Below, piece by piece: positions 2,851-21,360 of a stretch of DNA of 21,868 nt (positions are counted from its first letter, which is position 1; each line of letters begins with the position of its first letter). The stretch spans positions 1-21,868 of the forward strand of contig LRSL01000113.1 in the NCBI GenBank assembly GCA_001563335.1, read 5' to 3'. Origin of the DNA: Candidatus Thorarchaeota archaeon SMTZ1-45. GTDB lineage: Archaea > Asgardarchaeota > Thorarchaeia > Thorarchaeales > Thorarchaeaceae. The position numbers were made by a program, and so were the translations under genes. The notes under the pieces are model-generated. The model made no database searches and was not told the origin of the DNA. It saw nothing but the letters and a program-made list of their open reading frames with translations.

Positions 2851-2876
2851 TTTGATTCCGCTGTTACATATGCAGA

Positions 2877-2938
2877 GCCGCATACGAACAAACAATAAGA
2901 TGGCACTCTCAAGACTCGCCAGCTGGCAAGACTCAAGC
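2877..2938 (+). repeat. Promoter repeat P5: longest displaced copy of the ACAD upstream region
   Basis: gccgcatacgaacaaacaataagatggcactctcaagactcgccagctggcaagactcaagc aligns along its whole length with 8707-8769 (gcctcatacgaaggaactataagcagggtactctcccctctcgcccgctggcaagactctagc). Confidence 0.85.
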
Positions 2939-3022
2939 CACTCTCTCAATAAACAGGAAGATTCAAATTTCTGATTCCATTTTGCTAATGTCTTATTCAG
3001 ACAAGCCTGAAGTGTGAGTTCT

Positions 3023-3706
3023 ATGTTCATTGGACATTACGGTATCGCTTTCGCTCTGAAGAAATATGCACCCAAGACATCGCTTGGAATCCTGTTCATT
3101 GCTGTTCAACTGGTGGATATTGCGTTCTTTATCCTTGTTCCACTGGGAATTGAACACCTCCGAATTATCCCTGGTTTTACCGAAGCCAGTCCCTTCGACC
3201 TCTATGATTATCCAATCACTCATAGTCTTCTTGGAGCCCTTGCATGGGCTGTTGCAACTTATCTCGTATTTCGCTTCATCCTCTTGAGAAGTACAACTGA
3301 TTATACCTATAGACTAAGCACTGCACTTGTCATGAGTGTAGCAGTGTTTTCCCACTTTATCTTGGACATTGTTGTCCACACTCCTGATCTGCTGCTTGTT
3401 CCAGGACTTGACATAAGAGTGGGACTAGGACTCTGGAACAGCATTATTGCTACTGTTGCAGTTGAACTTGCCATTCTTCTTGTGGGTTGTTGGATATACC
3501 TCCATTCAACAACTCAGGGGGTAGGATTGTTAGGAAAGTATGGAATGTATGTCTTCATGATTGTGCTTGCCATCATCACCATAGTGACACCATTCACGAC
3601 TTTTCCTGATGTATTAACGGTCGTAATAACATCAGAACTATTGTATGCAGTTTTCACTCTGTTAGCATGGTTGTTGGATAGTAAGAGGTATGTTGCTGCA
3701 GATTAG
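3023..3706 (+). CDS. Membrane-bound metal-dependent hydrolase-like protein (YdjM-like)
   Basis: Motifs MFIGH, QLVD, YPITHSL and SHFILDIVVH plus several TM helices. The ATG at 3023 is preferred over the GTG at 3014. Confidence 0.75.
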   Translation: MFIGHYGIAFALKKYAPKTSLGILFIAVQLVDIAFFILVPLGIEHLRIIPGFTEASPFDLYDYPITHSLLGALAWAVATYLVFRFILLRSTTDYTYRLSTALVMSVAVFSHFILDIVVHTPDLLLVPGLDIRVGLGLWNSIIATVAVELAILLVGCWIYLHSTTQGVGLLGKYGMYVFMIVLAIITIVTPFTTFPDVLTVVITSELLYAVFTLLAWLLDSKRYVAAD

Positions 3707-3901
3707 ATATAAGAATCCCTTCCCAGTATCGCGAAAGGGGAGGTTGAGTTTCAAAGGGACTAGCACTTCGTGACAAACAGAGCCTTTCCAGACTCGCCAG
3801 ACTCCAAAAATGGTAATAGAAAATACGGAAAGAATGAAAGTGGTGATGAGTATTACTACAAAATATATAATATTAGTTTCTATTAGATTATACGTATAGG
3901 A

Positions 3902-4225
3902 ATGTATGCGGTACTAGGTTTCATTGTCTTCATTGTGCTCATTTCAGTTTCGTTGCCAATTATCTTCCCTTCTATCTTGACAGGATGCGTCGCATTCCTT
4001 ATTGCCTTGAAGCCTGAAGACCATGAGGGCTGGCTCTATTATGGTGATTTGTTGATTAAGCAGAACCAATACATTGAGGCTCTTGATGCGTATCAGACGG
4101 CGGCTAAGTTGCGCCCAGACATTACTAAGATTTGGATGAAGCTTGGAAACCTCTTTAATGAGTTGGGTCAATTTGATGAAGCGGACAAGGCATTCCGAAC
4201 AGGACTAGGCTCCAATTTTCTTTGA
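3902..4225 (+). CDS. Membrane-anchored TPR-repeat protein
   Basis: Hydrophobic N-terminus followed by two TPR units (WLYYGDLLIKQNQYIEALDAYQTAAKLRPD; WMKLGNLFNELGQFDEADKAFR). Confidence 0.8.
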   Translation: MYAVLGFIVFIVLISVSLPIIFPSILTGCVAFLIALKPEDHEGWLYYGDLLIKQNQYIEALDAYQTAAKLRPDITKIWMKLGNLFNELGQFDEADKAFRTGLGSNFL

Positions 4226-4422
4226 AGAGTTTTAAGCACAGAATGAGAACAATTGATAGGAGAATTGATCGCTCTTTCAGATTTCTATTTGATACTTTGA
4301 AAAGAAAACATCAATAGCTTCTCCTGATTGTCTAGAAGATAATACACCATTTTATCAGGGACTTAAGTAAGTTCTATTGCTTTTGTAACTTGAAGAGAGG
4401 TATGAGCTAGCTAGATGATCAT

Positions 4423-4911
4423 TTACGATTTTACAATTCTCCTCTCGAAGTCATGGACATAGTATCTTTTCCCCTTTTTTACCACACCATGACCTTCAGC
4501 CTCAAGTAATGCTTTGTGTGATTCAAGACCTCCAGGATACTTCTCATTTAAGAATCCATCAGTCTTCAAGGTCCGCCAGTAAGGTATTTTGAGCCTTTTT
4601 CCTTCTTTTGCTGCTTCTTCTACAGCATTTGCCGCGGTCGTAATGAATATGCCAGCAGTTAAGGAACAGCATCCCTTTACACCAAAGTTTTGAGCAATTC
4701 TTGCACAGATCTCTCTAATGGTAATCAGTTTCCCTCTTGGAACAGATTTCATTACTCCGATGACATGACTCGGGTTCACTAGAACAACATCGTCTCCTTC
4801 TTCAACACCCATCTTCTGAAGCGCTTTGTAACAGGGAAAGCTCTTCTCGAGTTTCAAGACCTTTGGATATCCATCTTTGTCTTCCATCTTCTCTCGCCAA
4901 GTCTTCTTCAT
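4423..4911 (-). CDS. MGMT-family / alkyltransferase-like DNA-binding protein
   Basis: VPRGKLIT...EI and IPYWRTLK, with PYWR in place of the catalytic PCHR; C-terminal LLEAEG. Confidence 0.75.
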   Translation of the reverse strand: MKKTWREKMEDKDGYPKVLKLEKSFPCYKALQKMGVEEGDDVVLVNPSHVIGVMKSVPRGKLITIREICARIAQNFGVKGCCSLTAGIFITTAANAVEEAAKEGKRLKIPYWRTLKTDGFLNEKYPGGLESHKALLEAEGHGVVKKGKRYYVHDFERRIVKS

Positions 4912-5027
4912 AAGACCATTCTCCTAACAATGAACTCAATACTTCAGTTACGTGATTTATTTAATAATCGGTTGATACTGAGGTTCTTCACAATCAAATA
5001 ATAACCGGAGATTCTGTATATACCCAG

Positions 5028-5060
5028 CTCATACGAGGTAACAATAAGCAAGGGGCTTTC
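5028..5060 (+). repeat. Promoter repeat P4 (diverged)
   Basis: ctcatacgaggtaacaataagcaaggggctttc versus native ctcatacgaaggaactataagcagggtactctc. Confidence 0.75.
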
Positions 5061-5074
5061 GACCGGGTCATCAT

Positions 5075-5776
5075 CTAGGGTGAAGATCCATATGTATTTT
5101 CGAGAATCCTTTCAACATGACGATAACTCTTTGAAGTCATTGTTGGAATTAGAATTAAACCTAGAAGCAAGACAACAAAAGCAAGTAACATGGTAGTTAC
5201 CCAGAGTTCCATGGTAAGGAACTCGTCATAGACGAAGAAGAACAACTCAGAAAATGAAACTCCCCAGAATCCGAAAAGCCCTAATGCAAATCCACGGATT
5301 GGATTCACCCGGCCTAGCATGAGTACCTCTCTCGCAAGAACAACCTTTCCTTTCTCTCTCTTTCCAAGAATGTTGCCTATAGCACTCTCTGAGAGGAGAA
5401 TCGCTTTGAATAGAAGATTAGAGGTAGAGAGAAAGACGCCTTTATCAGTGCTGCGTGACCAGAGTTGGATTCGTCTGCTGGCACCGAGTTCATCCCTGAC
5501 TTCCTCAAAAAGGGTTAAAATCTCTGCATTTGTAACTGGATTTCGAAATAGTATCAACTTCAGACCAAAGACAATGAACTGTACAGCTGAACCAACTAGT
5601 AATGTAGTTATAGTCCACTGGAGTATATTAAACTCAATATTGGCAAAGAGTCTAATTCCTATCAGTCCAAGAGTCCAGACTAAGCTGCACATAACTAGCC
5701 CCTCTTGAAATGCCATCGTGAAAAGAAACACCCCTGACTGATTCTCAATAATGTCTGGATCGCCTAGCATACTCAA
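5075..5776 (-). CDS. Hypothetical membrane protein, possibly a degenerate M48/M56 peptidase-like fold
   Basis: TM-soluble-TM architecture. AILLSE...VVLAREVLML resembles the context of VLAHExxH but lacks the His ligands. Confidence 0.6.
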   Translation of the reverse strand: MSMLGDPDIIENQSGVFLFTMAFQEGLVMCSLVWTLGLIGIRLFANIEFNILQWTITTLLVGSAVQFIVFGLKLILFRNPVTNAEILTLFEEVRDELGASRRIQLWSRSTDKGVFLSTSNLLFKAILLSESAIGNILGKREKGKVVLAREVLMLGRVNPIRGFALGLFGFWGVSFSELFFFVYDEFLTMELWVTTMLLAFVVLLLGLILIPTMTSKSYRHVERILENTYGSSP

Positions 5777-5906
5777 GCTCCCACTCAGAGTGTTTCTTGA
5801 AGCGGTATGCTATAAGGATAACTGCGAATGGATGCTTTCAAGTTTTTAGTAGGAGAAAGTCATGCAGTTACAATTCGAGTGTAGATCGCATAGAAGTGTT
5901 ATAAAA

Positions 5907-5950
5907 GCCTCAGTCGTAGGAACTATAAGCAGGGCACTCTCCCCACTCAC
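5907..5950 (+). repeat. Promoter repeat P3
   Basis: gcctcagtcgtaggaactataagcagggcactctccccactcac versus 8707-8750 gcctcatacgaaggaactataagcagggtactctcccctctcgc. Confidence 0.95.
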
Positions 5951-5981
5951 TTCAAGAGGAGAAAACAGGTGAATTGAATCT

Positions 5982-6716
5982 TCACCTAATGAATGGCGGA
6001 GGAACTAATCTGAAGTAATAGGATAGTAGTACAAGGAAGACCCAGAAGATGAGTGTAGACACAAGGTATCTAAGAGGCCGCCCACGCGCCAAGGCGCTGA
6101 AATGAAGTGATTCAGGCAACTGCAGTCGAATTGGTAGAATGAAGGGAGTGCTTTGCTGGTACTGCACAAATGAATCTCCAAACTCTTTACTCAACCAGTA
6201 ATCCTCAAGGTCAGCAACCAGAATTAATAGAAATAGAACTGAACACACAGACACCAGATCACCAGGTCTTGTGGCTGGAAGAAGCAGACGTGAGAAACTG
6301 GTCTTAAGTGGAAAAGCTAGAAGGTACAACATGAGTAGGATTCCCAAGTGTTGAGGATGCCGTACCCACCCATAGGGGCCGTATGTGACTAGACCTTCTT
6401 TATGTATACGTGCCCTAGCAAGAGTGACTAGCCCATAACAGAGAAGGAATAGACCAAAGCAGAACATAAGAACTTGCGAGAACCGGAATGCAACTGCTAT
6501 TCCGGTTTCAAGTCCTCCAGGAGAAGAAGGATCGAACATATACACATAGCCAGTCCAGCTATTTGAGTAGGGAACTATGTAGCTGAGGAGCTCCCACGAG
6601 AAATACCAGCTAGCTAGTATCCAGACCATTGGTGTCAGTATGCCAGCGACAATTGGCAGATAGAGGCCAACAGATATAGCGGCAGCGGTTATGTTGCTAA
6701 CGACCCTTTTTAACAC
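5982..6716 (-). CDS. Isoprenylcysteine carboxyl methyltransferase (Ste14/ICMT/PEMT)-family membrane protein
   Basis: Signature LVTYGPYGWVRHPQHLG, then LED..LSKEFG..F..YQ..TPFILP; multiple TM helices. Confidence 0.85.
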   Translation of the reverse strand: MLKRVVSNITAAAISVGLYLPIVAGILTPMVWILASWYFSWELLSYIVPYSNSWTGYVYMFDPSSPGGLETGIAVAFRFSQVLMFCFGLFLLCYGLVTLARARIHKEGLVTYGPYGWVRHPQHLGILLMLYLLAFPLKTSFSRLLLPATRPGDLVSVCSVLFLLILVADLEDYWLSKEFGDSFVQYQQSTPFILPIRLQLPESLHFSALARGRPLRYLVSTLIFWVFLVLLSYYFRLVPPPFIR

Positions 6717-6834
6717 TAGCTGAGTCCTCCCTCACCGAAAAGATGCTACAGTGCATATGCTATATTTCGACCTCCAATGTCAAGAAGATTTTGTTCTCGG
6801 CACGCTAGACAGACTCTAAGGGTATATCCGCCCA

Positions 6835-6865
6835 ATACGAGGGAACTATAAGCAGGGCACTCTCC
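6835..6865 (+). repeat. Promoter repeat P2
   Basis: atacgagggaactataagcagggcactctcc; the 20-bp core is identical to P1 and P3. Confidence 0.95.
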
Positions 6866-6907
6866 AAACTTTCTCTATAGGGATACAGAGCAGAGGTTAT
6901 CTATTAT

Positions 6908-7525
6908 TTACGGTTGTTTGACCATAACCCAATGGAGGATGTTGGCTATGGGCAATGTGAATGAGTCAATAACATCGAAGCCGTAATGTTTGTAAATTTG
7001 TACAAGACCTTCATCCTGAGTTTCAAGGACGCAGGGTTTGTTTTGTGAACTACACATTGAGAGTACAGGTCGGACAAGCTTGCTTGCAAGACCTTTCCCT
7101 TGATAATCTGGATGAACTGCCAGTGATCCTAAATACCAATGGGGCTCAGAAATACACTCATCTCTCTTACTGACTACAAAACTCTCTACTTCTCGCATTC
7201 TTCTTAGAGTCTTGGAACCAGCGGCTCGATACAGTCCTATCCCTCCCGTTCTAATTGCTCTCAACCAACTGAACTCATTGTACTCCGATTGTGTAAGGAT
7301 AACAACGCCCTCAATGTTTTCAGATGTAGCAAGGATTTTTCCATAGAGGAAGCCATTCTTAACACGGTAATTAAAGAACTTTGGAAGGAATCTCAACCTG
7401 CTTTCTGGTTCCGGTAAGAAATAACACAATAGATGATCATCAAAAAAAGCCTGAACTAAAGTTTCAGTGACCTTCTTTACGTCCCTTTTTGTTACATGGT
7501 AGGGTTCAGGACTCGTGTTTTGCAT
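6908..7525 (-). CDS. GNAT-family N-acetyltransferase
   Basis: WYLGSLAVHPDYQGKGLASKLV (acetyl-CoA motif A), then LET...YKHYGF. Confidence 0.9.
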   Translation of the reverse strand: MQNTSPEPYHVTKRDVKKVTETLVQAFFDDHLLCYFLPEPESRLRFLPKFFNYRVKNGFLYGKILATSENIEGVVILTQSEYNEFSWLRAIRTGGIGLYRAAGSKTLRRMREVESFVVSKRDECISEPHWYLGSLAVHPDYQGKGLASKLVRPVLSMCSSQNKPCVLETQDEGLVQIYKHYGFDVIDSFTLPIANILHWVMVKQP

Positions 7526-7622
7526 TGGTAGTCAGTTTTTATTAAAAGACCTTTCTGATATACCTTAGGATGGCTTGAGAATTAAGATTCATGAATATTA
7601 CTCTTCTTCAACGCAGGACAAA

Positions 7623-7653
7623 CCTTATGCGAAGGAACTATAAGCAGGGCACT
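7623..7653 (+). repeat. Promoter repeat P1
   Basis: ccttatgcgaaggaactataagcagggcact; ends 6 bp before the stop codon of the convergent epimerase gene. Confidence 0.95.
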
Positions 7654-7659
7654 TGTCTT

Positions 7660-8598
7660 TCATGGTCCGGATTGGTTTAGGACTGTGCCTTCATGTAGAT
7701 TCTCGATCGTGGCTTTGAGACCCTCTTTATAGGAGGGGTACTCCAGCTCCCAGTCAAGCTCTCTTTTGGCCTTCTCGTTAGTCACCACACAGTCTATCTG
7801 CATAATGCTTAGAAGGAAACCACCAAGGACGATTCGAGCGATGAACATTGGAATAGTTCGTGGCTTTGGCAGTCCCATGCACTCCGCCATGTGCTCTGTG
7901 AATTCTCGCGTGGTACACGGAGTATCGTCAGCTATGATGAATGATTCACTCACAGGCTGTTTCTCTACTGCAAGAACAAAGGCCTGAGCACAGTCATCGA
8001 CATGAACCCTCGGGATGTGGTTGTCACCTCTCCCGAAGACGCCGGAGCGCCCATTCTTCATCATCTCGTACATCTTGAGGAACTGGCCACCCGGTCCATA
8101 GATCTGACCCGGGAGCATTATGATGAGTGGTTGTCCCTCCTTCTTTGCCCTAGCAATAAGCACGTCAGCCTCTTCGCCAGCCTTCGTGAGACCCGTCCTG
8201 ACAAGTGGCCAAGACTCGTCAGCTACCTGTCCCTGCTTAGTGCTGTAGGCAGTGCCAAGAGTCAGTATGGTCGGGCAGTCAAGTTTCTTCCCGATAGTGA
8301 GAGCGGTCGACACGAACTTGGTCGTCCTCTGCTTAATCTGAGCGAACTTGCTCTTTGATATTCTTCCGAACTCGAGAGGCATGGCTACAGAAATCACACA
8401 GTCCTGGGAACTTATGTTGTCTATGAACGCGTCCGGCTCCATAAGGTCGCCGACTATTATTTCGATGCTCCTGTTACGAAAATATTCCGCCGCGTCAGTT
8501 CGACGGGTGAGTATTGTGACCTCATGACCATGCGACGAAAGTCTGGAAACTATCCTTGAACCCAGAAATCCAGTACCACCAAGCACAAGTACTCTCAG
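7660..8598 (-). CDS. NAD-dependent epimerase/dehydratase (extended/atypical SDR)
   Basis: (M)RVLVLGGTGFLG Rossmann motif, PGQIYGPG and VHVDDCAQA. The start is probably CTG at 8598 (GGTGA SD 6 nt upstream, in-frame stop just before) rather than GTG at 8586. Confidence 0.9.
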   Translation of the reverse strand: MRVLVLGGTGFLGSRIVSRLSSHGHEVTILTRRTDAAEYFRNRSIEIIVGDLMEPDAFIDNISSQDCVISVAMPLEFGRISKSKFAQIKQRTTKFVSTALTIGKKLDCPTILTLGTAYSTKQGQVADESWPLVRTGLTKAGEEADVLIARAKKEGQPLIIMLPGQIYGPGGQFLKMYEMMKNGRSGVFGRGDNHIPRVHVDDCAQAFVLAVEKQPVSESFIIADDTPCTTREFTEHMAECMGLPKPRTIPMFIARIVLGGFLLSIMQIDCVVTNEKAKRELDWELEYPSYKEGLKATIENLHEGTVLNQSGP

Positions 8599-8706: not shown

Positions 8707-8769
8707 GCCTCATACGAAGGAACTATAAGCAGGGTACTCTCCCCTCTCGCCCGCTGGCAAGACTCTAGC
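8707..8769 (+). promoter_or_regulatory. Putative BRE/TATA promoter of the acyl-CoA dehydrogenase gene (source of repeats P1-P5)
   Basis: Purine-rich CGAAGGAA (BRE-like) directly before CTATAAGC (TATA-like, ~8723-8730), ~60 bp upstream of ATG 8786. GAGGT SD at 8776-8780. Confidence 0.7.
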
Positions 8770-8785
8770 AATCAAGAGGTAGTTT

Positions 8786-10030
8786 ATGATGCATTTTGAA
8801 GAGTCGGATGAAGAAAAGATGTTCCGCGAGGCAGTGCGTGAGTTCGCTCAGAAATACGTCGCGCCTGCGTGGAAAGAGTATGATGAACACACTCACGAGG
8901 TTCCGCGAGACCTCATCAAGAAGATGGCAGACCAGATGTTGTGGGCACCCACTGTGTCAGAGGAGTATGGTGGAGCCAATCTCTCTTGGGTGATGTCATG
9001 CATCGCCGCAGAGGAGCTTGCGAAGGCAGACCTCTCCATTGCACTCCCAGTCATGTACCTTGTTGAGGCTTCATGGGCGTTTATCTTTGACAAGTATGGC
9101 ACTCCCGAGGCGAAGGCTGAGATCCTCCCGCGTGTCACAAAGGGAGACCTGTTCTTTGGTATCGCAACCACTGAACCAACTGGTGGCTCTGACCTCGTCA
9201 ACTCGACCAAGACCACGATCAAGCCAAAGGGTGACAAGTTTGTCATCAATGGTGAGAAGGTGTATATCTCCGGCGTGGCTGAGTCCGAGAAGTACGGTGG
9301 TGTATACTGGACACTGGCTAAGTCGGACCCGAAGGGCGACCACAAGGCATTCGATGGGTTCATTCTCCCGCTGAACATGGGTGATGGACTGCATCCTGGA
9401 ATCACAACCACGCTGTTTGAGGACATGGGGCGGATGGGTGTGTCCTGTGGTGGATTCAACATCGAGAATGTGGAGATTCCGAAGCACTACATCATCGGCG
9501 AGCGTGGGAGAGGATTTTATTATGCCATGATGGGTTTCAGTGCAGCCCGCGTGTTAATCGCAGCCACTTGCCTTGGTGCCGCACAAGCATGTTTTGACAT
9601 TGGTGTTGACTATGTTAAACAACGCAAGCAGTTCGGACGACCACTCGCGGCTTTTGAAGGCATAATGTTTGAAGGAGTCGATTCATGGATGGCAATTCAA
9701 GCTGACAGACATCTAACATATCATGCAGCCTGGATCATGGATGAAGTCTATAGTAGAAACAACAAAAACTACGACCATCTCGATATTGCCAGGTACACCG
9801 CTGCAGCCAAATACAAAGCACCACACGATGCTCTTGACATCATTACTCGTGCCATGACTTGGCACGGTGCCTTTGGATACTCCAAGGAATGTCCCCTCGA
9901 AGCTTCTTATAGGGGTGTTCGTTCATACACTGTTGGAGCTGAAGGGGGGTCTCATATACAGAAAATCGTCATGGGTCGAGAAATTTTCGGACCCGAATGT
10001 CTTCCATATCGTCAGGAAAAGCAGATGTAA
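8786..10030 (+). CDS. Acyl-CoA dehydrogenase (anchor gene of the array)
   Basis: Family motifs: SEEYGG, FGIATTEPTGGSD, INGEKVYIS, IGERGRGF, R-x-QFGRPL, HGAFGYSKE and catalytic-region GAEGGSHIQK; 414 aa. Confidence 0.96.
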   Translation: MMHFEESDEEKMFREAVREFAQKYVAPAWKEYDEHTHEVPRDLIKKMADQMLWAPTVSEEYGGANLSWVMSCIAAEELAKADLSIALPVMYLVEASWAFIFDKYGTPEAKAEILPRVTKGDLFFGIATTEPTGGSDLVNSTKTTIKPKGDKFVINGEKVYISGVAESEKYGGVYWTLAKSDPKGDHKAFDGFILPLNMGDGLHPGITTTLFEDMGRMGVSCGGFNIENVEIPKHYIIGERGRGFYYAMMGFSAARVLIAATCLGAAQACFDIGVDYVKQRKQFGRPLAAFEGIMFEGVDSWMAIQADRHLTYHAAWIMDEVYSRNNKNYDHLDIARYTAAAKYKAPHDALDIITRAMTWHGAFGYSKECPLEASYRGVRSYTVGAEGGSHIQKIVMGREIFGPECLPYRQEKQM

Positions 10031-10044
10031 TCAAAATCAATGAA

Positions 10045-10064
10045 AAGGGAGCCTATGCTCCCTT
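10045..10064 (+). terminator. Hairpin after the ACAD stop codon
   Basis: aagggagc-ctat-gctccctt, a perfect 8-bp stem followed by a T-rich run. Confidence 0.7.
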
Positions 10065-10079
10065 CTTTCTATTTATATC

Positions 10080-10382
10080 TCACTCTTCATATTCGTATAG
10101 ATTCTTGTTGCATTCTGGACATTGTTCAGGCGGTTTTTCTCCCTGATTAAATTTTAAATAGCATCCTCCAGACCTACATTCAACCCAATAGATATCATCA
10201 GAGTCAGGAGGTTCAAATTCAGCAAAGTGGTCATCAACAGGACCCATAAGTCTGAATCCTTCTTCCTTTAGCTTCGTAATAAATTTCAATCTGTCCTTGA
10301 GAGCCTTAATCACATCAGTGATGCTCTTACAATTATAGCCAGTAATCATTTGTTTGAAAAAGAATGCAAGGGCAATTTTCAT
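10080..10382 (-). CDS. Small hypothetical protein with C-terminal Zn-ribbon (paralog A)
   Basis: YWVECRSGGC...CPEC; aligns along its length with the neighbouring ORF. Confidence 0.75.
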   Translation of the reverse strand: MKIALAFFFKQMITGYNCKSITDVIKALKDRLKFITKLKEEGFRLMGPVDDHFAEFEPPDSDDIYWVECRSGGCYLKFNQGEKPPEQCPECNKNLYEYEE

Positions 10383-10414
10383 GTATTATTCCTGTATTAG
10401 GACACATTTCATCC

Positions 10415-10768
10415 TCATTCATGTGGCTTCACTCTATGACACTGGTTGCAGCTTGTTGGTTGCTGTGTTCTTTTTAGCAACTCTAGATGATATCCACAAG
10501 TCCTACAACGACCCCAATAGAATCCCTTACGCTTTGGAGGGATAATCTCGAGATAATCCTCAGCATCTCCCTCTCGGACTCTGTAACCTTCATTCTTCAA
10601 TTGATTGAAATATTCAATCTCTTTCTCAATTGCATGGATTATATCATCAATCGACTCACAATCTGCTTCAAGACTTAGGAATTTGAAACGATGGATACTC
10701 GGTATACAGTCAAGACATCCACAGTCGAATGAATCTAACCCAGTATTTCTACAACGTTCCTCATACAC
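10415..10768 (-). CDS. Small hypothetical protein with C-terminal Zn-ribbon (paralog B)
   Basis: YWGRCRTCG...CNQC, plus an extra N-terminal Cys cluster (C...DCGCLDC). Confidence 0.75.
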   Translation of the reverse strand: MYEERCRNTGLDSFDCGCLDCIPSIHRFKFLSLEADCESIDDIIHAIEKEIEYFNQLKNEGYRVREGDAEDYLEIIPPKRKGFYWGRCRTCGYHLELLKRTQQPTSCNQCHRVKPHE

Positions 10769-10950: not shown

Positions 10951-10995
10951 TTTGGAGCAAATTATCTGCTGTACAAGCAGGAGAAACAAATGTAG
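10951..10995 (+). repeat. ACAD tail copy T1 (short, degenerate, no clear hairpin)
   Basis: tttggagcaaattatctgctgtacaagcaggagaaacaaatgtag = FGANYLLYKQEKQM*. Confidence 0.85.
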
Positions 10996-11086
10996 AATCT
11001 TTGAGTGAGTTTAGCTGAGATAGATGTAAATTACATGTATGTAGAGATGTTTCAAACTCTTATTCGAAGAGGGGGTACAGCAAACC

Positions 11087-11542
11087 TTGTCTAGCGAAAA
11101 ACTTCATGATGCTTTAAAAAATTGGATAATGGAAAAAGCTGAACTAAAGAAAGATGCAAGGAAAAACAAATACTACGATCGTGTCTTTTCAGGGGATATG
11201 GAGCCAGTTGACATCAGGGTCAGAATGAAGCATTTTGATTATCGACCAGATATTGTTCTAGTTCGGAAAGATAGAAAGTATCTTGTAGAGATTGCTTTAA
11301 GCGAGGATTGGCGTGCATTAGTCGGAGAGCTGTCACTTGCTAAAGCTTGTCGTGCTGCAAATGTACTTTTCATCGTTTCTGGATGGGATAAAGATGCGCT
11401 TGATGATATTTTGACTGTAATGGGGGAGGTTCTTGACTACGAAAAGTGGTATTATATCATCCTGGATGACAATGATGTAAATAATTTAGAAAAAGCAAAG
11501 AAAGTTGTAAGTAAATGGCTGACTGATTGGGAATGGATCTAA
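11087..11542 (+). CDS. Hypothetical protein, possible PD-(D/E)xK nuclease fold
   Basis: N-terminal helix S..LHDALK, then YRPDIVLVRKDRKYLVEIA (PD...E-x-A). Fold assignment is from motif only. Confidence 0.55.
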   Translation: MSSEKLHDALKNWIMEKAELKKDARKNKYYDRVFSGDMEPVDIRVRMKHFDYRPDIVLVRKDRKYLVEIALSEDWRALVGELSLAKACRAANVLFIVSGWDKDALDDILTVMGEVLDYEKWYYIILDDNDVNNLEKAKKVVSKWLTDWEWI

Positions 11543-11553
11543 ACTATGACCTA

Positions 11554-11645
11554 ATGTCACGAAAGATATTCAGACCAGACTATCTGCCGTACAGGCAAGA
11601 GAAACAGATGTAGTTTCAAGTTTCAATCGAGAGAGGTGTTCCTCT
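11554..11645 (+). repeat. ACAD tail copy T2 plus hairpin
   Basis: 11554-11613 = MSRKIFRPDYLPYRQEKQM*, then tttcaagtttcaatc and agagg-tgtt-cctct. Confidence 0.95.
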
Positions 11646-11714
11646 TTATCCCCTCATTTTTATATTGATTACTAGATTGGGTGGAGTGTGTTTCGTTCTC
11701 TGGTGGGGATTGAG

Positions 11715-13682
11715 ATGAAGGACCAAGATAGAAAACCGGACCCATTACTTCGAGCGATAGACATCACCATTATCATCTTGATTATCTCCTGCCTTGGCGT
11801 AGGAGTCATCGTGGGATATAATAAACCTTCAAGAGGGACAATAGAACTAATCGAGGGAACTGAGATTAGTGGGGTTCCTAGCCAGAATGTAACGAAATCA
11901 TTCTCTGCAACCGACTCAGACTTGGTTTTCCTGAATGAACCGCCAAGTGTGAATAGTCACTGGTTTTATTCATCTGACTATTATGGGGATGAATGGGGTG
12001 TCCCCGTCGTTGAATCAAGGAAGGCGAGGTCGTCCCTCTCCTCAGAGGGACTGTTGCTAGAACTGAGTGGAGCCGAGGTTCGTTTTACAACTGGAGTGAG
12101 GATTCCCCTGAACGCATGTAGCACTTTGAATTATGCAACCTCTTTGGGAGTTCTCAATGGACAGGTGGAGATAAACTTCAGAGTGTGGTTCAGAAAGAGT
12201 CCTTATACAGTCATGGGTGACAACCTAACTAGGGAGAAGAGCATAAGTCTAACTCCAGCTAATGGGACTGCAAATCTCTCATTCAATATTCCTATTGAAA
12301 GTTTCAATGCCTCTGTGCCTCAGTTGTCTATAGAGTCTTGGGTCCGTATCACAATAGAATCTCAGTTTCCGACTCGATTATTAGTTGGCAATGTAAGTAT
12401 AAGTGGTCAAGCAACATATGACCTTTGCAGGGTTTCAGTTGATGTCCAAGCGCTTGATGGGAGAAGCATATATGCACCTCCGTATATGACGGATCTTTGG
12501 CCCTACCCCCTCATCAACCTCACAAGACAGGACGCTCCTAGTACATCTTCATTGTTTTACATCCTGCGTTCAAATGATGTCCTCTATCTCGAGCCCGGAA
12601 ATTACTCGGGATTTGCGTACTGGTCGCCGAGAATAGTAAGTGATTCTGACAACCCTTATTGGCAATCAAGGTTAGCCATCAATATCACGATTGCCACAAA
12701 CGAAACAGCGATCTGGGAGATAAGGATGCAATGTACTAGATTGTTCATCACAATAGATCCTATGATTCCTGAAACGTTTGTTCAAATACAAACTGTGGAC
12801 GACCACTTATACTATTCAATTGGTAGTTTTAATGCTTCAGTGAGTGATTTCATCTACCTACCAATATCAAATGGTTCAGATTCTTTCGATATTTTTATTA
12901 AAACGAATCCCAGCACTCAATACAACTATAGAGATTTGCCCGTAGTTTCCTATTTCCCAATGGAGAATCCACTCGAAATTGATTCCAACCATGAGTGGCA
13001 TCTCGAAGTAAAGCTTCCAATCGATGTTTTCTTGGGAGTTGGCTTCATTGGCGAAGATATAACAATTATAAATCTAGGAGTTATTACGCTACTTCTTATG
13101 ATTGGGCGAGTCCTGATTCACTTCAAGAAGATAGGTTTCATTTCGATACTAAAAGACCCACGCCTTATTCCGTTCGTGATTCTGTGCATTAGTCTGATCT
13201 TTCCTTGGGCCGAATACTCACACACCACATCAGAATGGTTGGGATCGGACTCTACAATCCTTTTCACCAAAATAAGTCCGCTTGCCCTACTTCTAATGTG
13301 GAGCAAAGATAGCATCATCATTTTGCAACCGGGAATATACTGGTTTGAATCTTACATCCAATATCATATAGGATGGATGATAAGTATTACATATGATGCA
13401 TGCGCATTATTCCTAAGTTCTGTCTTCCTATTCTGGATTCCCGTTATCTACTGCTTTACTACGATTGGTAGAGGCGACAAGAGGAATGCAGACTATTTAC
13501 TGTATTATCTACTTGCATTAGGAGCACCGACATTGCTAGCCTGCTTGCCATTCATACCAAATTCGAGGTTGATTTTTGAGGGATTGGGAATAGGAGCATA
13601 CCTTGCAATGTCAACAATCCCAGTGTTCCTGTTGGTGAATTTGCTGTATCGATTTAGGACTCGTTTGATGGATACTCAATAA
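11715..13682 (+). CDS. Large hypothetical membrane protein with extracellular domain
   Basis: N-terminal TM, long beta-rich region with many N-x-S/T sequons, and ~5-6 C-terminal TM helices. ATG 11715 follows a GGTGG SD; an alternative GTG start lies at 11688. Confidence 0.8.
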   Translation: MKDQDRKPDPLLRAIDITIIILIISCLGVGVIVGYNKPSRGTIELIEGTEISGVPSQNVTKSFSATDSDLVFLNEPPSVNSHWFYSSDYYGDEWGVPVVESRKARSSLSSEGLLLELSGAEVRFTTGVRIPLNACSTLNYATSLGVLNGQVEINFRVWFRKSPYTVMGDNLTREKSISLTPANGTANLSFNIPIESFNASVPQLSIESWVRITIESQFPTRLLVGNVSISGQATYDLCRVSVDVQALDGRSIYAPPYMTDLWPYPLINLTRQDAPSTSSLFYILRSNDVLYLEPGNYSGFAYWSPRIVSDSDNPYWQSRLAINITIATNETAIWEIRMQCTRLFITIDPMIPETFVQIQTVDDHLYYSIGSFNASVSDFIYLPISNGSDSFDIFIKTNPSTQYNYRDLPVVSYFPMENPLEIDSNHEWHLEVKLPIDVFLGVGFIGEDITIINLGVITLLLMIGRVLIHFKKIGFISILKDPRLIPFVILCISLIFPWAEYSHTTSEWLGSDSTILFTKISPLALLLMWSKDSIIILQPGIYWFESYIQYHIGWMISITYDACALFLSSVFLFWIPVIYCFTTIGRGDKRNADYLLYYLLALGAPTLLACLPFIPNSRLIFEGLGIGAYLAMSTIPVFLLVNLLYRFRTRLMDTQ

Positions 13683-13691
13683 AGAACTTAT

Positions 13692-13785
13692 ATGGGCAGA
13701 GAGATATTCGGACCGGACTATCTTCCATATCGCCAAGAGAAACAGATGTAGTTTCTAGAAATGGAGAGAGAGGGGATTCCTCTCT
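13692..13785 (+). repeat. ACAD tail copy T3 plus hairpin
   Basis: 13692-13751 = MGREIFGPDYLPYRQEKQM*; hairpin agagagg-ggatt-cctctct (13767-13785). Confidence 0.95.
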
Positions 13786-13862
13786 TGCTCTTTACTTACG
13801 ATTGACTTTTCTCATTTGAGCCTTTTTTGAAAAAAGAGAAATAGAAGCTAGAACAAGTAGGA

Positions 13863-14060
13863 ATGATCAAAATGACGAGGGATATGTGGAAGGTAGCCAG
13901 GTGGATAGCAATCGTGTATTTGATACTTGGAGCTGTATTTACAGCCTTGTGGTGGTTTGGATTCATTGTACTTGGTGCTGGCAATCCGGTTTCGGAGTTC
14001 TTCTTTTATTTCTTCTTGCCAGTATGGGCTTTATTTACATCCTTTATTCCACCATTATGA
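13863..14060 (+). CDS. Small hypothetical membrane protein (2 TM)
   Basis: 65 aa, strongly hydrophobic; the only plausible gene between T3 and T4. Confidence 0.6.
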   Translation: MIKMTRDMWKVARWIAIVYLILGAVFTALWWFGFIVLGAGNPVSEFFFYFFLPVWALFTSFIPPL

Positions 14061-14136
14061 TATGATTGAAAACTTGGATTTCCCCTTCATGTTATCAACA
14101 CTTGCAAGCGGCAACTACAGGTGCATAAATGCTAAT

Positions 14137-14237
14137 ATTGTCATGGCACGCGAGATATTCGGACCCGACTATCTACCGTACAGGCAAGAAAAACAGATGT
14201 AGATTCAAACTTTCAAACGAGAGAGGAGCTTCCTTTC
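14137..14237 (+). repeat. ACAD tail copy T4 plus imperfect hairpin
   Basis: IVMAREIFGPDYLPYRQEKQM* (stop at 14202); gagagg-agctt-cctttc. Confidence 0.95.
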
Positions 14238-14268
14238 GAAGAAAAGTGGAGTCTGGACTGTCTACTAG

Positions 14269-14374
14269 AAGGTGGTAATGGCACGGGAGTTACTGGGAGC
14301 AGAAAACCTCCCCTACCGCCAAGAGAAACAGATGTAGATTCAAGCTTCAAATCGAGAGAGGGTTCTCCTCTCTC
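14269..14374 (+). repeat. ACAD tail copy T5 plus hairpin (divergent allele)
   Basis: KVVMARELLGAENLPYRQEKQM* (stop at 14337); gagagagg-gttct-cctctctc (14354-14374). Confidence 0.93.
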
Positions 14375-14384
14375 CTCACTATTT

Positions 14385-14894
14385 CTATCTCTGAAAGAAC
14401 TTCCGTGTGATCCTCTTTTCCTCTGAGAATTTCATTTCAGCCTCATCAAGGACAGAACGATAGCCTTCCTGTTCTTCACCTCTCATTTTGGCGGCTTTCA
14501 TTTGATCCAGTTTGTCTTCCCAGAATTCCACAATCTCAGGATGATTTTCAAAATAGTCTTCCAATCTATCATGTATCTGCCTAAGAAAGCCCTGGGGGTC
14601 ATACGCAATTCTCGACAAGATAGTTGTGTACCAAAGAAATGGATAAGTTTCAATAGACTGCAAAACCATATTCAGTGGTTCGACACTCATGTCGATCTTG
14701 ATTCCTCTTCGGTACTCCTCTATGAATTGATGTGTTTCAATGCTCTCTGAAATCACCCCGAGATCAACGTCAGAATCAGGTCTAATATCACCAGTCACTA
14801 GACTTCCAGCAATTTCAATACCAACTATTGATGGGTCTTTCTTGAGTTCCTCGACAACTTCTTCTGCAATTTTTTCCTGTAGGGTTTCCATCAT
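14385..14894 (-). CDS. Nucleotidyltransferase domain protein (Pol-beta/MNT/KNTase-like)
   Basis: IAGSLVTGDIRPDSDVDLGVI contains the GS...DxD motif; third Asp in GIKIDMS. Confidence 0.85.
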   Translation of the reverse strand: MMETLQEKIAEEVVEELKKDPSIVGIEIAGSLVTGDIRPDSDVDLGVISESIETHQFIEEYRRGIKIDMSVEPLNMVLQSIETYPFLWYTTILSRIAYDPQGFLRQIHDRLEDYFENHPEIVEFWEDKLDQMKAAKMRGEEQEGYRSVLDEAEMKFSEEKRITRKFFQR

Positions 14895-14918
14895 CTACAC
14901 AACTTTGGCTCATTCAAC

Positions 14919-15941
14919 TCATTCAACAGTATCGTTGAATAGGACTATCCTGTAACGTGCCTTGTTCTCCTTTACCTTCCGAATCGCCTCGTTTACCTTC
15001 GTCATAGGCATCAACTCCACTTTAGGCATGATGTTGTACTCCTGTGCGAACGAGAACATCTCCCGCATTGTGGTCCGATTGCCGAGGAAAGAACCAGTGA
15101 TCGACAGTTGACGTGCCACGAGTTCAGTCGAATTGAACTCCACGTCTGGAAAGCCGATAAGGACCAGCCTGCCCTTTTTCTTCAAGATATTCAATAGTGC
15201 CTCCCAGTTGATTTTGTTTGAGGCGGTGCACAGAAGCAGGTCAAAACTAAGCATAGCCTCTCGCAAGCTTGTCTGGTCGTCCGAAGAGAGGAAGTGGTCT
15301 GCACCAAAGGAAAGCGCCTCCTGTTTCTTCTCCGGAGAGGAGGAAATGGCTGTGACATCGTAGTCGAGAGCCCGTGCGAACTGTAATGCAAGGTGACCCA
15401 GACCTCCCACACCGATGATACCAATTTTCCGCGCGGGTTGCGTTGCGTACGAACGAAGCGGCGAGTAGACCGTGACCCCGGCACACGTTAACACAGCGGC
15501 CACCTCAGAAGGCATGTCGTCAGGCAGCTGATAGACAAAGCGGCTATCCGCGATGACGGAGGACGAGAAGCCACCATAGGGGACCCAGGTTCCTGATGGA
15601 ACAATGTCCAAGCAAAGCTGGTCTTCTCCCTGCAAACACCACTCACATTGCATACAAGACCGACCCTGCCAGCCGATGGCAACTCGATCCCCTTCCTTCA
15701 AACCGGATGCCGCATGGCCCACTTCCGACACATGTCCAACGATTTCATGACCTGGGACGAAGGGAAAGGTGGTTATATCGTAGTAATTGTCGATGGCATG
15801 GATGTCGCTATGGCACACACCGCAGTGCGTGACAGAAACCCTGACATCATGCTCCCCCAGTTTGGGTGGCTCGTAGGTGATTGGCTCGAGCGGTTGCCCT
15901 ACCGCCTTCGCTGCGTATCCCAAGACTTTTGAAGAAGACAT
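14919..15941 (-). CDS. ahr: Zn-dependent NAD(P)-dependent alcohol dehydrogenase / aldehyde reductase (CAD family, Ahr/YjgB-like)
   Basis: CGVCHSD, PGHEIVG, structural Zn site CMQCEWC...C, GVGGLGHLALQFA and the C-terminal ARYRIVL. Confidence 0.9.
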   Translation of the reverse strand: MSSSKVLGYAAKAVGQPLEPITYEPPKLGEHDVRVSVTHCGVCHSDIHAIDNYYDITTFPFVPGHEIVGHVSEVGHAASGLKEGDRVAIGWQGRSCMQCEWCLQGEDQLCLDIVPSGTWVPYGGFSSSVIADSRFVYQLPDDMPSEVAAVLTCAGVTVYSPLRSYATQPARKIGIIGVGGLGHLALQFARALDYDVTAISSSPEKKQEALSFGADHFLSSDDQTSLREAMLSFDLLLCTASNKINWEALLNILKKKGRLVLIGFPDVEFNSTELVARQLSITGSFLGNRTTMREMFSFAQEYNIMPKVELMPMTKVNEAIRKVKENKARYRIVLFNDTVE

Positions 15942-16043
15942 TCGCAGAACCTCTCCTGTTCAGTAGCGCGCATCCAATGGAACAGCTGAGCATGCTGTCG
16001 GACGTTGATTGAACAGAGAATATTAGTATTCCGTTAAACAGAG

Positions 16044-16149
16044 AAGATTGTCATGGCACGAGAGATCTTCGGACCCGACCTTCTGCCGTACAGACAAGAG
16101 AAACAGATGCAGGTTCAAGTTTCAAACCGAGAGAGGTTCTTCCTCTCTC
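16044..16149 (+). repeat. ACAD tail copy T6 plus hairpin (stop mutated TAG>CAG)
   Basis: KIVMAREIFGPDLLPYRQEKQMQ; gagagagg-ttctt-cctctctc (16129-16149). Confidence 0.95.
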
Positions 16150-16243
16150 AATCCCTTTTCTTTATCGACTCAATATTTTGTTCGAACAATTGATAAGATA
16201 ATATATTATCGGTGGAAACCGCGATACCTGCAATAGCTTTGAA

Positions 16244-17821: not shown

Positions 17822-17883
17822 ATCATACTCGCACTAGTTCAGATTCAATGATGGATCGTAACTGCTAGATTAGCTGTACCGAG

Positions 17884-17990
17884 AAGATCGTCATGGCGCG
17901 TGAGATATTCGAATCTGAGTATCTGCCGTACAAGCAAGAAAAACAGATGTAGTTTCGAATTCAGTAGAGAGAGGTTCTTCCTCTCTCTAC
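17884..17990 (+). repeat. ACAD tail copy T7 plus hairpin
   Basis: KIVMAREIFESEYLPYKQEKQM* (stop at 17952); perfect 11-bp stem gtagagagagg-ttctt-cctctctctac (17964-17990). Confidence 0.95.
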
Positions 17991-18076
17991 GTTTCTTTTC
18001 AATACAATGGACAACGTGCAAATCTTATTAGAATCCACTTTGCATTCAAATCGGTTTAATACTGGAGGAAGTCTAA

Positions 18077-20264: not shown

Positions 20265-20276
20265 AAAAGAGAATAG

Positions 20277-20379
20277 ATTGTCATGGCTCGTGAGATCTTC
20301 GGACCTGACTATCTGCTGTACAGGCAAGAGAAGCAGATGTAGTTTCAAACTTCAATCGAGAGAGGTTCGCCCCTCTCTC
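20277..20379 (+). repeat. ACAD tail copy T8 plus hairpin
   Basis: IVMAREIFGPDYLLYRQEKQM* (stop at 20342); gagagagg-ttcgcc-cctctctc (20358-20379). Confidence 0.95.
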
Positions 20380-20445
20380 CTCCACTCATTTTTCATTCAT
20401 TGATCCGCATAGGGTGTCCATCATTCGACCTGAGTCAAAGCTAGC

Positions 20446-21192: not shown

Positions 21193-21260
21193 GCATGATG
21201 AACAGCTTCACTCCCGCAAAAGTATTGTGCCGTGGTTCCATAAAGATGAGGTGCGTAATG

Positions 21261-21360
21261 GTCATGGCACGCGAGATCTTCGGTCCAGACTATCTGCTGT
21301 ACAGGCAAGAGAAACAGATGTAGTCTCATTTTGTATTTCGAGGGAGATTCATGCTCCCTC
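21261..21360 (+). repeat. ACAD tail copy T9 plus hairpin
   Basis: VMAREIFGPDYLLYRQEKQM* (stop at 21323); gagggag-attcatg-ctccctc (21340-21360). Confidence 0.95.

Follow-up and report, generated by a model that had tools for sequence, protein, structure and literature searches.

A probable recombinant acyl-CoA dehydrogenase gene between two cassette arrays of a Thorarchaeota archaeon

Contig LRSL01000113.1 of Candidatus Thorarchaeota archaeon SMTZ1-45 was analyzed over 21,868 nt, hereafter the window. Its anchor gene sits between two cassette arrays, one on each side, and the 5′ and 3′ halves of this gene prefer different synonymous codons. How did a conserved gene at such a position become a mosaic, and did its halves come with the cassettes that adjoin them?

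The anchor ORF was matched by Pfam families PF02771 (N-terminal, residues 7-121), PF02770 (middle, 126-229) and PF00441 (C-terminal, 241-400), all above the cut-off, and by 36 solved acyl-CoA dehydrogenase (ACAD) sequences end to end in a phmmer search. It is a full-length ACAD with three domains (N alpha, middle beta, C alpha), and the protein shares 79-91% amino acid identity with Thorarchaeota orthologues. Homology detected by blastn to at least 28 other Thorarchaeota loci begins at window positions 8702-8712. The gene and its parts are laid out as follows.

8707..8785, plus strand: conserved leader/promoter segment ('head') of the anchor unit, putative; its copies form the upstream repeat family D4/D9
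8786..10030, plus strand: ACAD ORF, the anchor gene, 414 aa; Thorarchaeota (Asgard archaeon)
8786..9505, plus strand: 5′ segment, codons 1-240; GC3-rich, with a preference for GAG and AAG; of the usual family type, near orthologues L001 and L006
9494..9583, plus strand: junction zone, codons 237-266; ML changepoint at codon 242 (nt 9509)
9506..10030, plus strand: 3′ segment, codons 241-414; GC3 at the genome background, GAA only; the most divergent of its clade
9966..10066, plus strand: resident tail unit, made up of the last ~22 codons, the TAA stop, the hairpin GGGAGC/GCTCCC and a T-rich tract; matched by the nhmmer model

The hand count of Glu codons in the initial annotation was exact: 19 GAG and 5 GAA are found up to nt 9500 and 0 GAG and 9 GAA from nt 9656 (Fisher p=5.2e-5). 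The Lys codons AAG and AAA are likewise distributed 17/2 in the 5′ part versus 3/5 in the 3′ part (p=0.011). A GC3 and codon scan bore out this contrast. Maximum chi-square on GC3 placed a changepoint at codon 242, where GC3 drops from 0.62 to 0.36; the observed value was never attained in 2000 within-gene permutations (p<=0.0005). The 2-lnL support interval of the changepoint spans codons 237-266, and GC3 by segment is 0.62-0.65 in the 5′ part and 0.36-0.40 in the 3′ part. Total GC is 0.532 (8786-9505) versus 0.467 (9506-10030). In 60-nt lines the 5′ part is richer, as annotated, but its range overlaps that of the 3′ part more than the lines sampled by hand had indicated (0.45-0.58 versus 0.38-0.52). 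The changepoint coincides with the Pfam boundary between the middle and C-terminal domains; the step is abrupt, being completed within ~30 codons, and the low level is uniform over 172 codons. Codons 277-279, for example, read GTT AAA CAA in the window and GTC AAG CAG in 10/10 relatives.

The orthologous loci, here numbered with the prefix L, indicate which half departs from the norm. ACAD GC3 exceeds the median of the neighboring ORFs at 27/27 loci for the 5′ part and at 23/27 for the 3′ part. As a high GC3 is the norm for ACAD, the 5′ half is ordinary and its likeness to the adjoining SDR cassette coincidental. The difference in GC3 between the two parts of the window gene (0.25) is the largest of 30, and no significant step (p>=0.05) is seen in 21 of 29 orthologues, of which many have arrays. 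The gradient is thus rare and not a property of the ACAD gene as such. The atypical half is the 3′ half, although being atypical does not settle which half is the newcomer.

Divergence changes at the same place as composition. Averaged over 10 clade members, the nucleotide identity of the window gene is 0.827 for the 5′ part, equal to the members' own mean, and 0.764 for the 3′ part, for which the other clade members have means of 0.777-0.841. The 5′-minus-3′ difference in identity is 0.064 in the window and -0.011 to 0.035 in the other members; at third positions it amounts to 0.154, compared with 0.076 or less in the others. The identity drop begins at codons 231-250, where GC3 falls, and the relatives, too, have a somewhat lower GC3 over codons 241-280 and in the tail. 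The dS of the 5′ part to the nearest relatives is 0.8-1.1, whereas that of the 3′ part is saturated in 13 of 15 comparisons. Median dN is 0.07 in the 5′ part and 0.09 in the 3′ part; values this low suggest that purifying selection still acts on the 3′ half. In protein and DNA trees alike, both halves of the window gene fall within one 16-member clade without supported conflict, and only the branch length differs: the terminal branch of the window measures 0.11 (5′) versus 0.25 (3′), with medians of 0.12 and 0.13. For the annotated claim of a mosaic this outcome is mixed, in that the common clade of the halves speaks against it and the orthologues lacking a gradient speak for it.

A donor was searched for with full-length proteins, with the per-half identities of 66 proteins and with a short-protein search using residues 200-414. 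The 66 database proteins, 29 loci and 17 short fragments compared yielded no donor and no closer relative for the 3′ half; the best amino acid identity for the C-terminal half was 0.89-0.91 and the best nucleotide identity for the 3′ half was 0.79. A paralogue was ruled out as its source, the identity being 74-91% to Thorarchaeota orthologues versus ~55% to the next family members.

Breakpoints recur at this place in other orthologues. In a two-tree scan of the family, the gain in likelihood peaked at codon 244 with a dlnL of 242 (range 97-242 over 56 breakpoints), and the peak stayed at codons 238-250 with the window left out. This gain takes in differences in branch length besides topology; the usable control is shuffled codon columns, for which it was 14-106 (7 permutations x 8 breakpoints). 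Both the annotated position of the junction and the notion of two gene parts with different histories were supported. Four orthologues, L017, L016, L013 and L027, pair differently in the two half-trees, and at least one of these trees gives the pairing starred support. L026 and L029 differ at 14/720 sites before codon 240 and at 59/522 after it (Fisher p=3.8e-12), the switch falling between codons 223 and 253, and a triplet scan placed the junction of L017 at codon 251. GC3 changepoints in other orthologues lie at codons 231-252 (L020, L007, L005, L032) or 331-349 (L018, L016, L008), and at all seven strong changepoints (p<=0.005) it is the 5′ side that is rich in GC3 (binomial p=0.016). For the window itself, triplet MaxChi over 378 parent pairs yielded no pair with a junction near codon 242; the top signal was at codon 169 (chi2 23.6, Bonferroni 0.076), all Bonferroni values in this test lying at the floor of 5000 permutations. 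Together, the scans support intragenic recombination at codon ~244 as a family-wide feature and a putative hotspot.

Reciprocal AU tests were also run on DNA and protein, and each half rejected the tree of the other (dlnL 231 and 149). As the odd/even-codon control gave rejections too (dlnL 125 and 86), these tests are not specific and were dropped as proof of recombination.

The mosaic most likely arose by homologous recombination with a related lineage that replaced one of the two halves. More specifically, and with somewhat better than even confidence, we regard the window ACAD as a recombinant of two alleles at the border of a hypervariable, two-sided cassette island. Codons 1-240 would then represent an ordinary member of the L001-L016 clade with the usual GC3-rich bias of the gene, and codons ~242-414 would stem, along with the resident tail and hairpin, from a different, more divergent allele of the same orthologue that lacks this bias. 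One crossover would have occurred in the conserved block just before the boundary of the middle and C-terminal domains, and a second one presumably downstream, in the tail repeat or beyond. With ACAD as the conserved border of the island, exchange of island-side DNA between lineages might drag the adjoining gene parts along. The discontinuity, its rarity among orthologues and the breakpoints recurring at one place are observed; from them we infer a recombination event in the window genome, its donor and its far end.

On both sides of ACAD, the arrays consist of copies of the ends of the anchor unit alternating with cassettes.

2876..7663, plus strand: upstream array, head units with cassettes between them; repeat families D4 and D9
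~2876-2938, 5907-5948, 6830-6871 and 7622-7663, plus strand: displaced heads
7660..8586, minus strand: SDR/epimerase cassette adjoining the 5′ end; Pfam Epimerase; GC 0.51, GC3 0.57
10080-10382 and 10415-10768, minus strand: two small AT-rich ORFs adjoining the 3′ end; GC 0.37-0.40, GC3 0.33-0.34
10951..21363, plus strand: downstream array, nine displaced tail units with cassettes between them; tblastn/blastn, repeat families D1-D3, nhmmer
10951-11002, 11551-11646, 13690-13788, 14138-14237 and 14273-14376, plus strand: displaced tails 1-5
16048-16151, 17888-17988, 20277-20381 and 21259-21363, plus strand: displaced tails 6-9

Head copies were also found in L017, L024, L038 and L057. The cassettes carry enzymes, secreted proteins and defence genes, with ORFs on both strands. 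The two ORFs within 10080..10768 gave weak rubredoxin-like and FmdB zinc-ribbon matches, below curated cut-offs, and had no homologue among 80 loci. The displaced tails of the window mostly have GAG codons, PDYLPY and a TAG stop, and the resident tail has GAA, PECLPY and TAA, as the initial annotation had noted. Consistent with its further remark that the process would need no integrase, no integrase or recombinase family (Pfam, NCBIfam) was detected in any of the 23 ORFs of the window or among 172 ORFs representing 42 loci, flanks of the gene included, and neither were replication or conjugation genes. The sole related match is a TnpB-like ORF lying far left in L014.

The initial annotation held that each half matches its adjacent cassette and explained this by a process resembling homology-facilitated illegitimate recombination (HFIR), in which a cassette joined to ~520 nt of donor ACAD would recombine homologously at one end and illegitimately at the other. 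We consider this improbable. The GC figures of the neighbors stand, the AT3-rich tract runs through the resident tail and abuts the AT-rich ORFs, the resident tail differs in type from 8/9 displaced tails, and the lack of an integrase would suit such a mechanism. However, the match of the 5′ half failed, as its GC3-rich state is normal at every locus compared, and the SDR cassette keeps its own GC3 (0.61) in L057, where a copy with 86.6% nucleotide identity lies 6.3 kb from ACAD. The proposed non-homologous far junction did not hold either: 25/27 displaced tails start at residues 388-395 (tblastn), 42/42 displaced copies lie on the plus strand (nhmmer) and most tails are full units including the hairpin, a regularity that random joins would not give. 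This shared boundary leaves HFIR unsupported and points to a targeted or repeat-mediated junction rather than an illegitimate one; moreover, the tail repeats offer ~105 nt of homology for a second homologous crossover. Nor does the evidence favor arrival of cassettes joined to a piece of ACAD, since sharing an adjacent cassette does not make two genomes more alike at the edge of the gene (p=0.78 for 6 upstream pairs and p=0.81 for 10 downstream pairs, few in both cases). L020 has a comparable gradient with no array within 4.5 kb downstream, and arrays are not associated with strong changepoints (4/15 versus 1/5, Fisher p=1.0). Little credence is also due to the idea that a long 3′ segment of ACAD serves as the attachment region of a mobile element or an excised cassette circle; untranslated while on the element, this segment would lose its codon bias and become the new 3′ end on integration. 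The uniform polarity, AT3-rich on the 3′ side at every strong changepoint, would fit, and longer 3′ fragments do exist: P0130 (162 aa, on a contig of up to 814 kb) comprises ACAD residues ~289-414 behind an unrelated N-terminus, and L004 holds a displaced copy starting at residue 371. Yet a long duplicate would be expected after single-crossover integration, and the longest displaced copy in the window has ~27 codons. The 3′ segment had no match in phage or plasmid collections, the ORF searches described above found no genes of such an element, and the low dN argues against a silent phase.

An artifact of assembly has a higher, though still modest, probability. The upstream array and 5′ ACAD of one co-occurring Thorarchaeota population may have been joined to the 3′ ACAD and downstream array of another, in which case no such molecule exists. 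This explanation retains weight because no donor was found, both halves lie in one clade and the junction is known from the assembled contig alone. Assembly is fragile at ACAD, as 14/42 orthologous contigs begin or end inside the gene (residues 112, 157, 208, 240, 248, 267, 272, 321, 338, 364, 385, 387, 395 and 400), and about ten further contigs end within ~0.5 kb of it. In addition, the exact window protein was absent from the protein collection searched (best match 90%), which thus held no independent assembly of the junction. On the other hand, codons 241-260 hold the fewest exact k-mers shared among the 16 clade members, with runs of at least 20 nt common to no more than 3/120 pairs and none of at least 31 nt, so a graph chimera between species would be least likely there. 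Chimeras would also give either polarity, in contrast to the 7/7 observed, and no clade orthologue sampled has a GC3 of 0.36-0.40 over the whole gene, the lowest being L014 (0.50/0.42). Less probable than any of these, in our judgment, is that no recombination took place and the 3′ half lost its codon bias where it stands, for example through locally relaxed translational selection or AT-biased repair associated with recombination by the insertion site. The placement of both halves in the same clade and the slight dips in the GC3 of the relatives agree with such a loss, but the abruptness and uniformity of the step, the many array-bearing orthologues without one and the onset of excess divergence just where GC3 drops all argue against it.

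Taken alone, a mosaic formed by homologous recombination is a familiar footprint, that of an exchange whose end point falls within the conserved gene bordering a variable island. As outlined by Lopez-Perez et al., 2014 (PMC4033161), replacement flexible genomic islands have a conserved border gene in which extra, mostly synonymous substitutions mark the end of the imported tract. The window resembles them in that composition and divergence change abruptly within a flanking gene that is conserved, and do so chiefly at synonymous sites, with the excess mainly at third positions and a low dN. Unlike in those islands, the border gene is flanked on both sides by additive cassette arrays that are made up of copies of its ends, and different species have the breakpoint at one and the same domain boundary. 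As the relatives are species-level MAGs and not clonal frames, neither donor nor date can be assigned for the window.

Arrays of displaced 3′ gene parts have precedents. C-terminal displacement has reportedly been found in Rhs proteins. For T6SS effector-immunity arrays, a model of sequential displacement by HFIR has been put forward, in outline with a homologous anchor upstream, older 3′ pieces pushed downstream and no integrase (Kirchberger et al., 2017, PMC5361080). The ACAD locus shares with these systems the conserved upstream gene part as an anchor, the 3′ pieces as a downstream array and the lack of an integrase. The displaced parts of T6SS and Rhs genes, however, are variable toxin tips with immunity genes, whereas those of the window are one constant tail of ~22 codons plus hairpin, encoding a single conserved C-terminus and no alternative variable ones, and its anchor gene encodes a metabolic enzyme.

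tRNA-gene islands, tycheposons and other integrative elements that insert at the 3′ end of a gene and restore it leave tandem direct repeats of that end flanking successive insertions, and the newcomer supplies the 3′ end. The window likewise has direct repeats of the 3′ end of its target, but no integrase-bearing element occurs in the cassettes examined, and a junction 170 codons upstream cannot be accounted for by site-specific crossing over in the last 22 codons. Archaeal integrons and CALINs are described by Ghaly et al., 2022 (PMC9668308) as short cassettes with structured repeats of ~100 nt, mostly without a local integrase, and as enriched in Asgard genomes. Cassettes separated by structured repeats of ~100 nt are also present in the window, and no IntI tyrosine recombinase was found beside the arrays in the ORFs of these loci, though one may be encoded elsewhere in the genome. 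Unlike integrons, however, the window has repeats that are the anchor gene's own coding tail or leader, and its cassettes occur on either side of the gene and in either orientation.

Literature searches found no paper describing an ACAD cassette locus. A 2024 paper (PMC11529989) named aloposons as the sole non-viral integrated elements reported from Asgard archaea up to that time. If the window ACAD is a recombinant of two alleles, it would provide evidence at the sequence level that Thorarchaeota exchange DNA by homologous recombination across species-level distances, and the ACAD-anchored island would be reshuffled in this way as well as by whatever inserts the cassettes. The recurrent junction is pinpointed at a protein-domain boundary. 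The locus also serves as a warning, being a weak point of assembly in MAGs.

A bolder and rather doubtful extension is a two-sided cassette system that works without an integrase, with ACAD as its platform and with the leader and the tail plus hairpin as recombination sites. Array-linked, AT3-rich 3′ alleles, starting at the domain boundary near codon 244 or near codon 340, might then form a pool that moves horizontally along with the downstream arrays and is semi-independent of the host chromosome, and the mosaic and the common polarity of the changepoints would be their footprints.

The resident tail type of the window recurs as displaced copies in L008, and its hairpin is the resident hairpin in L004. 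In the window, this hairpin has an MFE of -13.4 and a z of -4.2. Rfam at the gathering score and a tRNA scan gave no match, and RNAalifold on a MAFFT alignment of the 49 tail ends yielded a weak consensus. When each copy was folded separately, a short perfect hairpin followed the stop codon in 45/49 tail copies.

Around the acyl-CoA dehydrogenase (ACAD) gene, the window carries cassettes on both sides:

8786–10030, + strand: ACAD ORF, 414 aa
7660–8586, − strand: SDR cassette, adjoining the ACAD 5′ end
2876–8785 and 9966–21363: cassette arrays around ACAD, with leader copies upstream and tail units downstream; also listed for L002, L004–L006, L008–L011, L015, L017, L018, L021, L028 and L032 (L numbers denote compared Thorarchaeota or related Asgard loci)

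The Pfam N-terminal, middle and C-terminal domains of ACAD span residues 7–121, 126–229 and 241–400, and solved ACADs match the protein over its full length. All of its relatives at 79–91% identity carry annotations as Thorarchaeota or related Asgard MAGs. Among 80 loci taken from genome_contigs, 42 harbor an ACAD orthologue; this set is without the window's own genome, and its closest match is 91%. Literature searches made for the ACAD-anchored locus found no published description of it.

The initial annotation described the gene as a codon mosaic whose halves match the adjacent cassettes. Its hand count of Glu codons was exact (19 GAG and 5 GAA up to nt 9500, 0 and 9 from nt 9656; Fisher p=5.2e-5), and Lys follows the same trend (AAG/AAA 17/2 vs 3/5; p=0.011). 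The maximum chi-square changepoint of third-position GC (GC3) is located at codon 242, with 0.62 on the left and 0.36 on the right, a value matched by 0 of 2000 permutations, and its 2-lnL support interval (codons 237–266) corresponds to the border of the middle and C-terminal domains. Total GC is 0.532 for the 5′ part (codons 1–240) and 0.467 for the 3′ part (codons 241–414). The 60-nt lines overlap beyond what their sampling had implied. The descriptions of the neighbouring ORFs and of the differences between resident and displaced tails were correct.

We compared GC3 of ACAD with the median of neighbouring long ORFs, which was exceeded by the 5′ part in 27/27 loci and by the 3′ part in 23/27; thus, high GC3 and the preference for GAG and AAG are the normal state of this gene. 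The 5′ half of the window ACAD is ordinary (GC3 0.65 vs a background of 0.42), the 3′ half is at the background level (0.40), and the difference of 0.25 is the largest among 30 genes. Since the 5′ half is ordinary and the SDR cassette is similarly GC3-rich in L057 (0.61) and in the window (0.57), the match between the two is a coincidence. The DNA identity of this cassette between the window and L057 (86.6%) exceeds that of their ACAD 5′ parts (0.78).

Divergence was then compared between the window and ten members of its clade. The mean DNA identity of the window is 0.827 over codons 2–240, as central as any clade member, and 0.764 over codons 245–413, the lowest of the members compared. The resulting difference of 0.064 lies outside the range of the other members (−0.011 to 0.035), and at third positions it amounts to 0.154 (others ≤0.076). 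For the 5′ part, dS to the nearest relatives is 0.8–1.1; for the 3′ part, 13/15 comparisons are saturated. dN is low in both (medians 0.07 and 0.09). In the DNA trees, the terminal branch of the window is 0.11 for the 5′ part and 0.25 for the 3′ part (medians 0.12 and 0.13). The loss of identity sets in at codons 231–250, alongside the GC3 drop.

Evidence of recombination near ACAD codon 244 is much stronger for the family than for the window alone. A breakpoint test, proposed in the initial annotation and carried out as a GARD-like comparison of one tree with two trees at 56 breakpoints, peaked at codon 244 (ΔlnL 242), with a second peak at codon 40 (ΔlnL 170); without the window, the peak was still at 238–250. 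The gain was only 14–106 when codon columns were shuffled (7 permutations × 8 breakpoints) and 67 for an odd/even codon split. Reciprocal AU tests reject the tree of the other half, but they carry no weight because an odd/even control rejects as well. L017, L016, L013 and L027 group with different partners in the two half-trees, at least one of which gives starred support; the triplet scan places the L017 junction at codon 251. L026 and L029, which differ at 14 of 720 sites before codon 240 and 59 of 522 after it and switch between codons 223 and 253, are a cleaner and more recent case of the window-type junction. L026:10001–11242 and L029:1125–2366 share 98–99% identity in the upstream region and in ACAD codons 1–240, and just 88% past codon ~250. 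Six other loci have GC3 changepoints with p≤0.005, at codons 231–251 (L020, L007, L005) or 331–349 (L018, L016, L008); that of L032 is weaker (codon 252, p=0.04). The seven strong changepoints, counting that of the window, all have their GC3-rich part on the 5′ side (binomial p=0.016).

Recombination tracts apparently reach into ACAD from the 5′ side as well. Window 8707–8875, which covers the leader plus the initial ~30 codons, is 90–96% identical to L001, L038 and L006, and the next 80 codons about 77–80%. L017 has a displaced head containing ACAD residues 2–23.

The phylogeny of the window halves is the weak point of the recombinant reading. Separate trees of the halves were another proposed check: both fall inside one 16-member clade (L001–L016), and neither protein nor DNA half-trees contain a supported conflict involving the window. 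The 66 best database proteins, 29 full-length loci and 17 short fragments contained nothing more closely related to the 3′ half. A triplet MaxChi scan of 378 parent pairs found no junction near codon 242 for the window; the strongest signal lay at codon 169, with all corrected p-values at the permutation floor.

On balance, we lean slightly toward the window ACAD being a true recombinant, with its 3′ tract joined by homologous recombination at a family-wide hotspot. The source of the tract would be another allele of the same ACAD orthologue, more divergent and with a weak codon bias, and the hotspot used would be the one adjoining the boundary of the middle and C-terminal domains. A footprint of this kind is described for replacement genomic islands (PMC4033161). 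The ACAD locus is a systematic assembly breakpoint: 14/42 orthologous contigs (L003, L022, L024, L025, L030, L031, L034–L036, L038, L044, L057, L072 and L073) have an end within the gene, in four cases at residues 240–272, so the risk of a chimeric join is real. These ends also fit population-level variation of the 3′ half. However, codons 241–260 have the fewest exact k-mers shared among clade members, and one shared polarity of changepoints is unexpected for chimeras; an assembly chimera is considered rather unlikely. About ten further orthologous contigs end or begin within roughly 0.5 kb of ACAD, and the L073 and L044 contigs of a single MAG share a 404-nt overlap with 97.8% identity and a frameshift.

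The initial annotation had cassettes arriving with a donor ACAD piece by homology-facilitated illegitimate recombination, which we consider improbable. There was no sign of cassettes moving jointly with ACAD pieces. Pairs sharing an adjacent cassette have no more similar gene edges (6 upstream, p=0.78; 10 downstream, p=0.81), and the uniform boundaries and orientation of tail units argue against an illegitimate far junction. Strong changepoints are not tied to arrays (1/5 loci without, 4/15 with); L020 steps from GC3 0.69 to 0.43 at codon 247, yet has no tail copy within 4.5 kb downstream. A second crossover could use the homology that tail units offer (about 105 nt). A 3′ half borne by a mobile element, similarly doubtful, is favored by the polarity of changepoints, by a small number of longer 3′ fragments, among them the database protein P0130, and by a displaced copy in L004 beginning at residue 371. 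That the 3′ half drifted in place is very improbable. P0130 (162 aa, on a contig of up to 814 kb) carries ACAD residues ~289–414 after an unrelated N-terminus. Another database protein, P0136 (88 aa, on a 536-nt contig), carries residues 159–233, matches the window at 97% identity across residues ~200–233 and turns into unrelated sequence directly after K233, near the hotspot.

A cassette island extends on both sides of ACAD, which forms its conserved core. Homology of the window to at least 28 other loci starts sharply at 8702–8712, which defines a conserved unit of about 8707–10066. Upstream cassettes are split by copies of the ~65-nt leader preceding the ACAD start codon; downstream, nine extra ~105-nt tail units, each comprising the last ~22 ACAD codons, stop, hairpin and T-rich tract, lie between cassettes. 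Tail-unit arrays occur in 14 other loci, and the 42 displaced copies, including the nine of the window, are all on the + strand. tblastn detected 27 displaced tails, 25 of which start at ACAD residues 388–395. Cassettes of the window turn up again in other genomes, at different positions around ACAD: the SDR cassette 6.3 kb from ACAD in L057, the GNAT cassette in L022 and L036, the ADH cassette downstream in L005, and the M54 peptidase and TPR protein just upstream in L020. L018 has cassette cluster c44 upstream, L015 has it downstream. No integrase or other recombinase family was found in the 23 window ORFs, nor in 172 representative ORFs (≥140 aa) of the 42 loci; searches for tRNAs and Rfam families found none.

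The hairpin follows the stop codon at window 10031–10066 and in each tail unit. It is short, perfect and variable in sequence with pairing kept (GAGAGAGG/CCTCTCTC, GGGAGC/GCTCCC, GGGGGC/GCCCCC), has a stem of ≥6 bp in 45/49 copies from the window and loci (median z-score −4.3), and is followed 3′ by a T/C-rich tract. The hairpin may serve as a terminator or as a site of recombination. In the displaced tail at 16048–16151, CAG replaces the stop TAG of the others and the reading frame continues into the spacer.

The ACAD cassette island also acts as a defence island. Defence-type genes lie downstream of ACAD in many loci and include type I restriction-modification, HerA-like ATPase, GmrSD, OLD-family, Schlafen/AlbA and STAND NTPase genes. 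The defence regions are:

L014:11313–21225
L020:11245–15790
L033:5065–11186
L018:19063–20910
L023:11961–15895

The window also contains NosD/right-handed beta-helix cassettes at 2–631 (−), 18077–19711 (+) and 21403–21867 (−). Some of these cassette proteins have internal repeats (families D5–D8 and D10), and the family is also present in the arrays of L004, L018 and L028.
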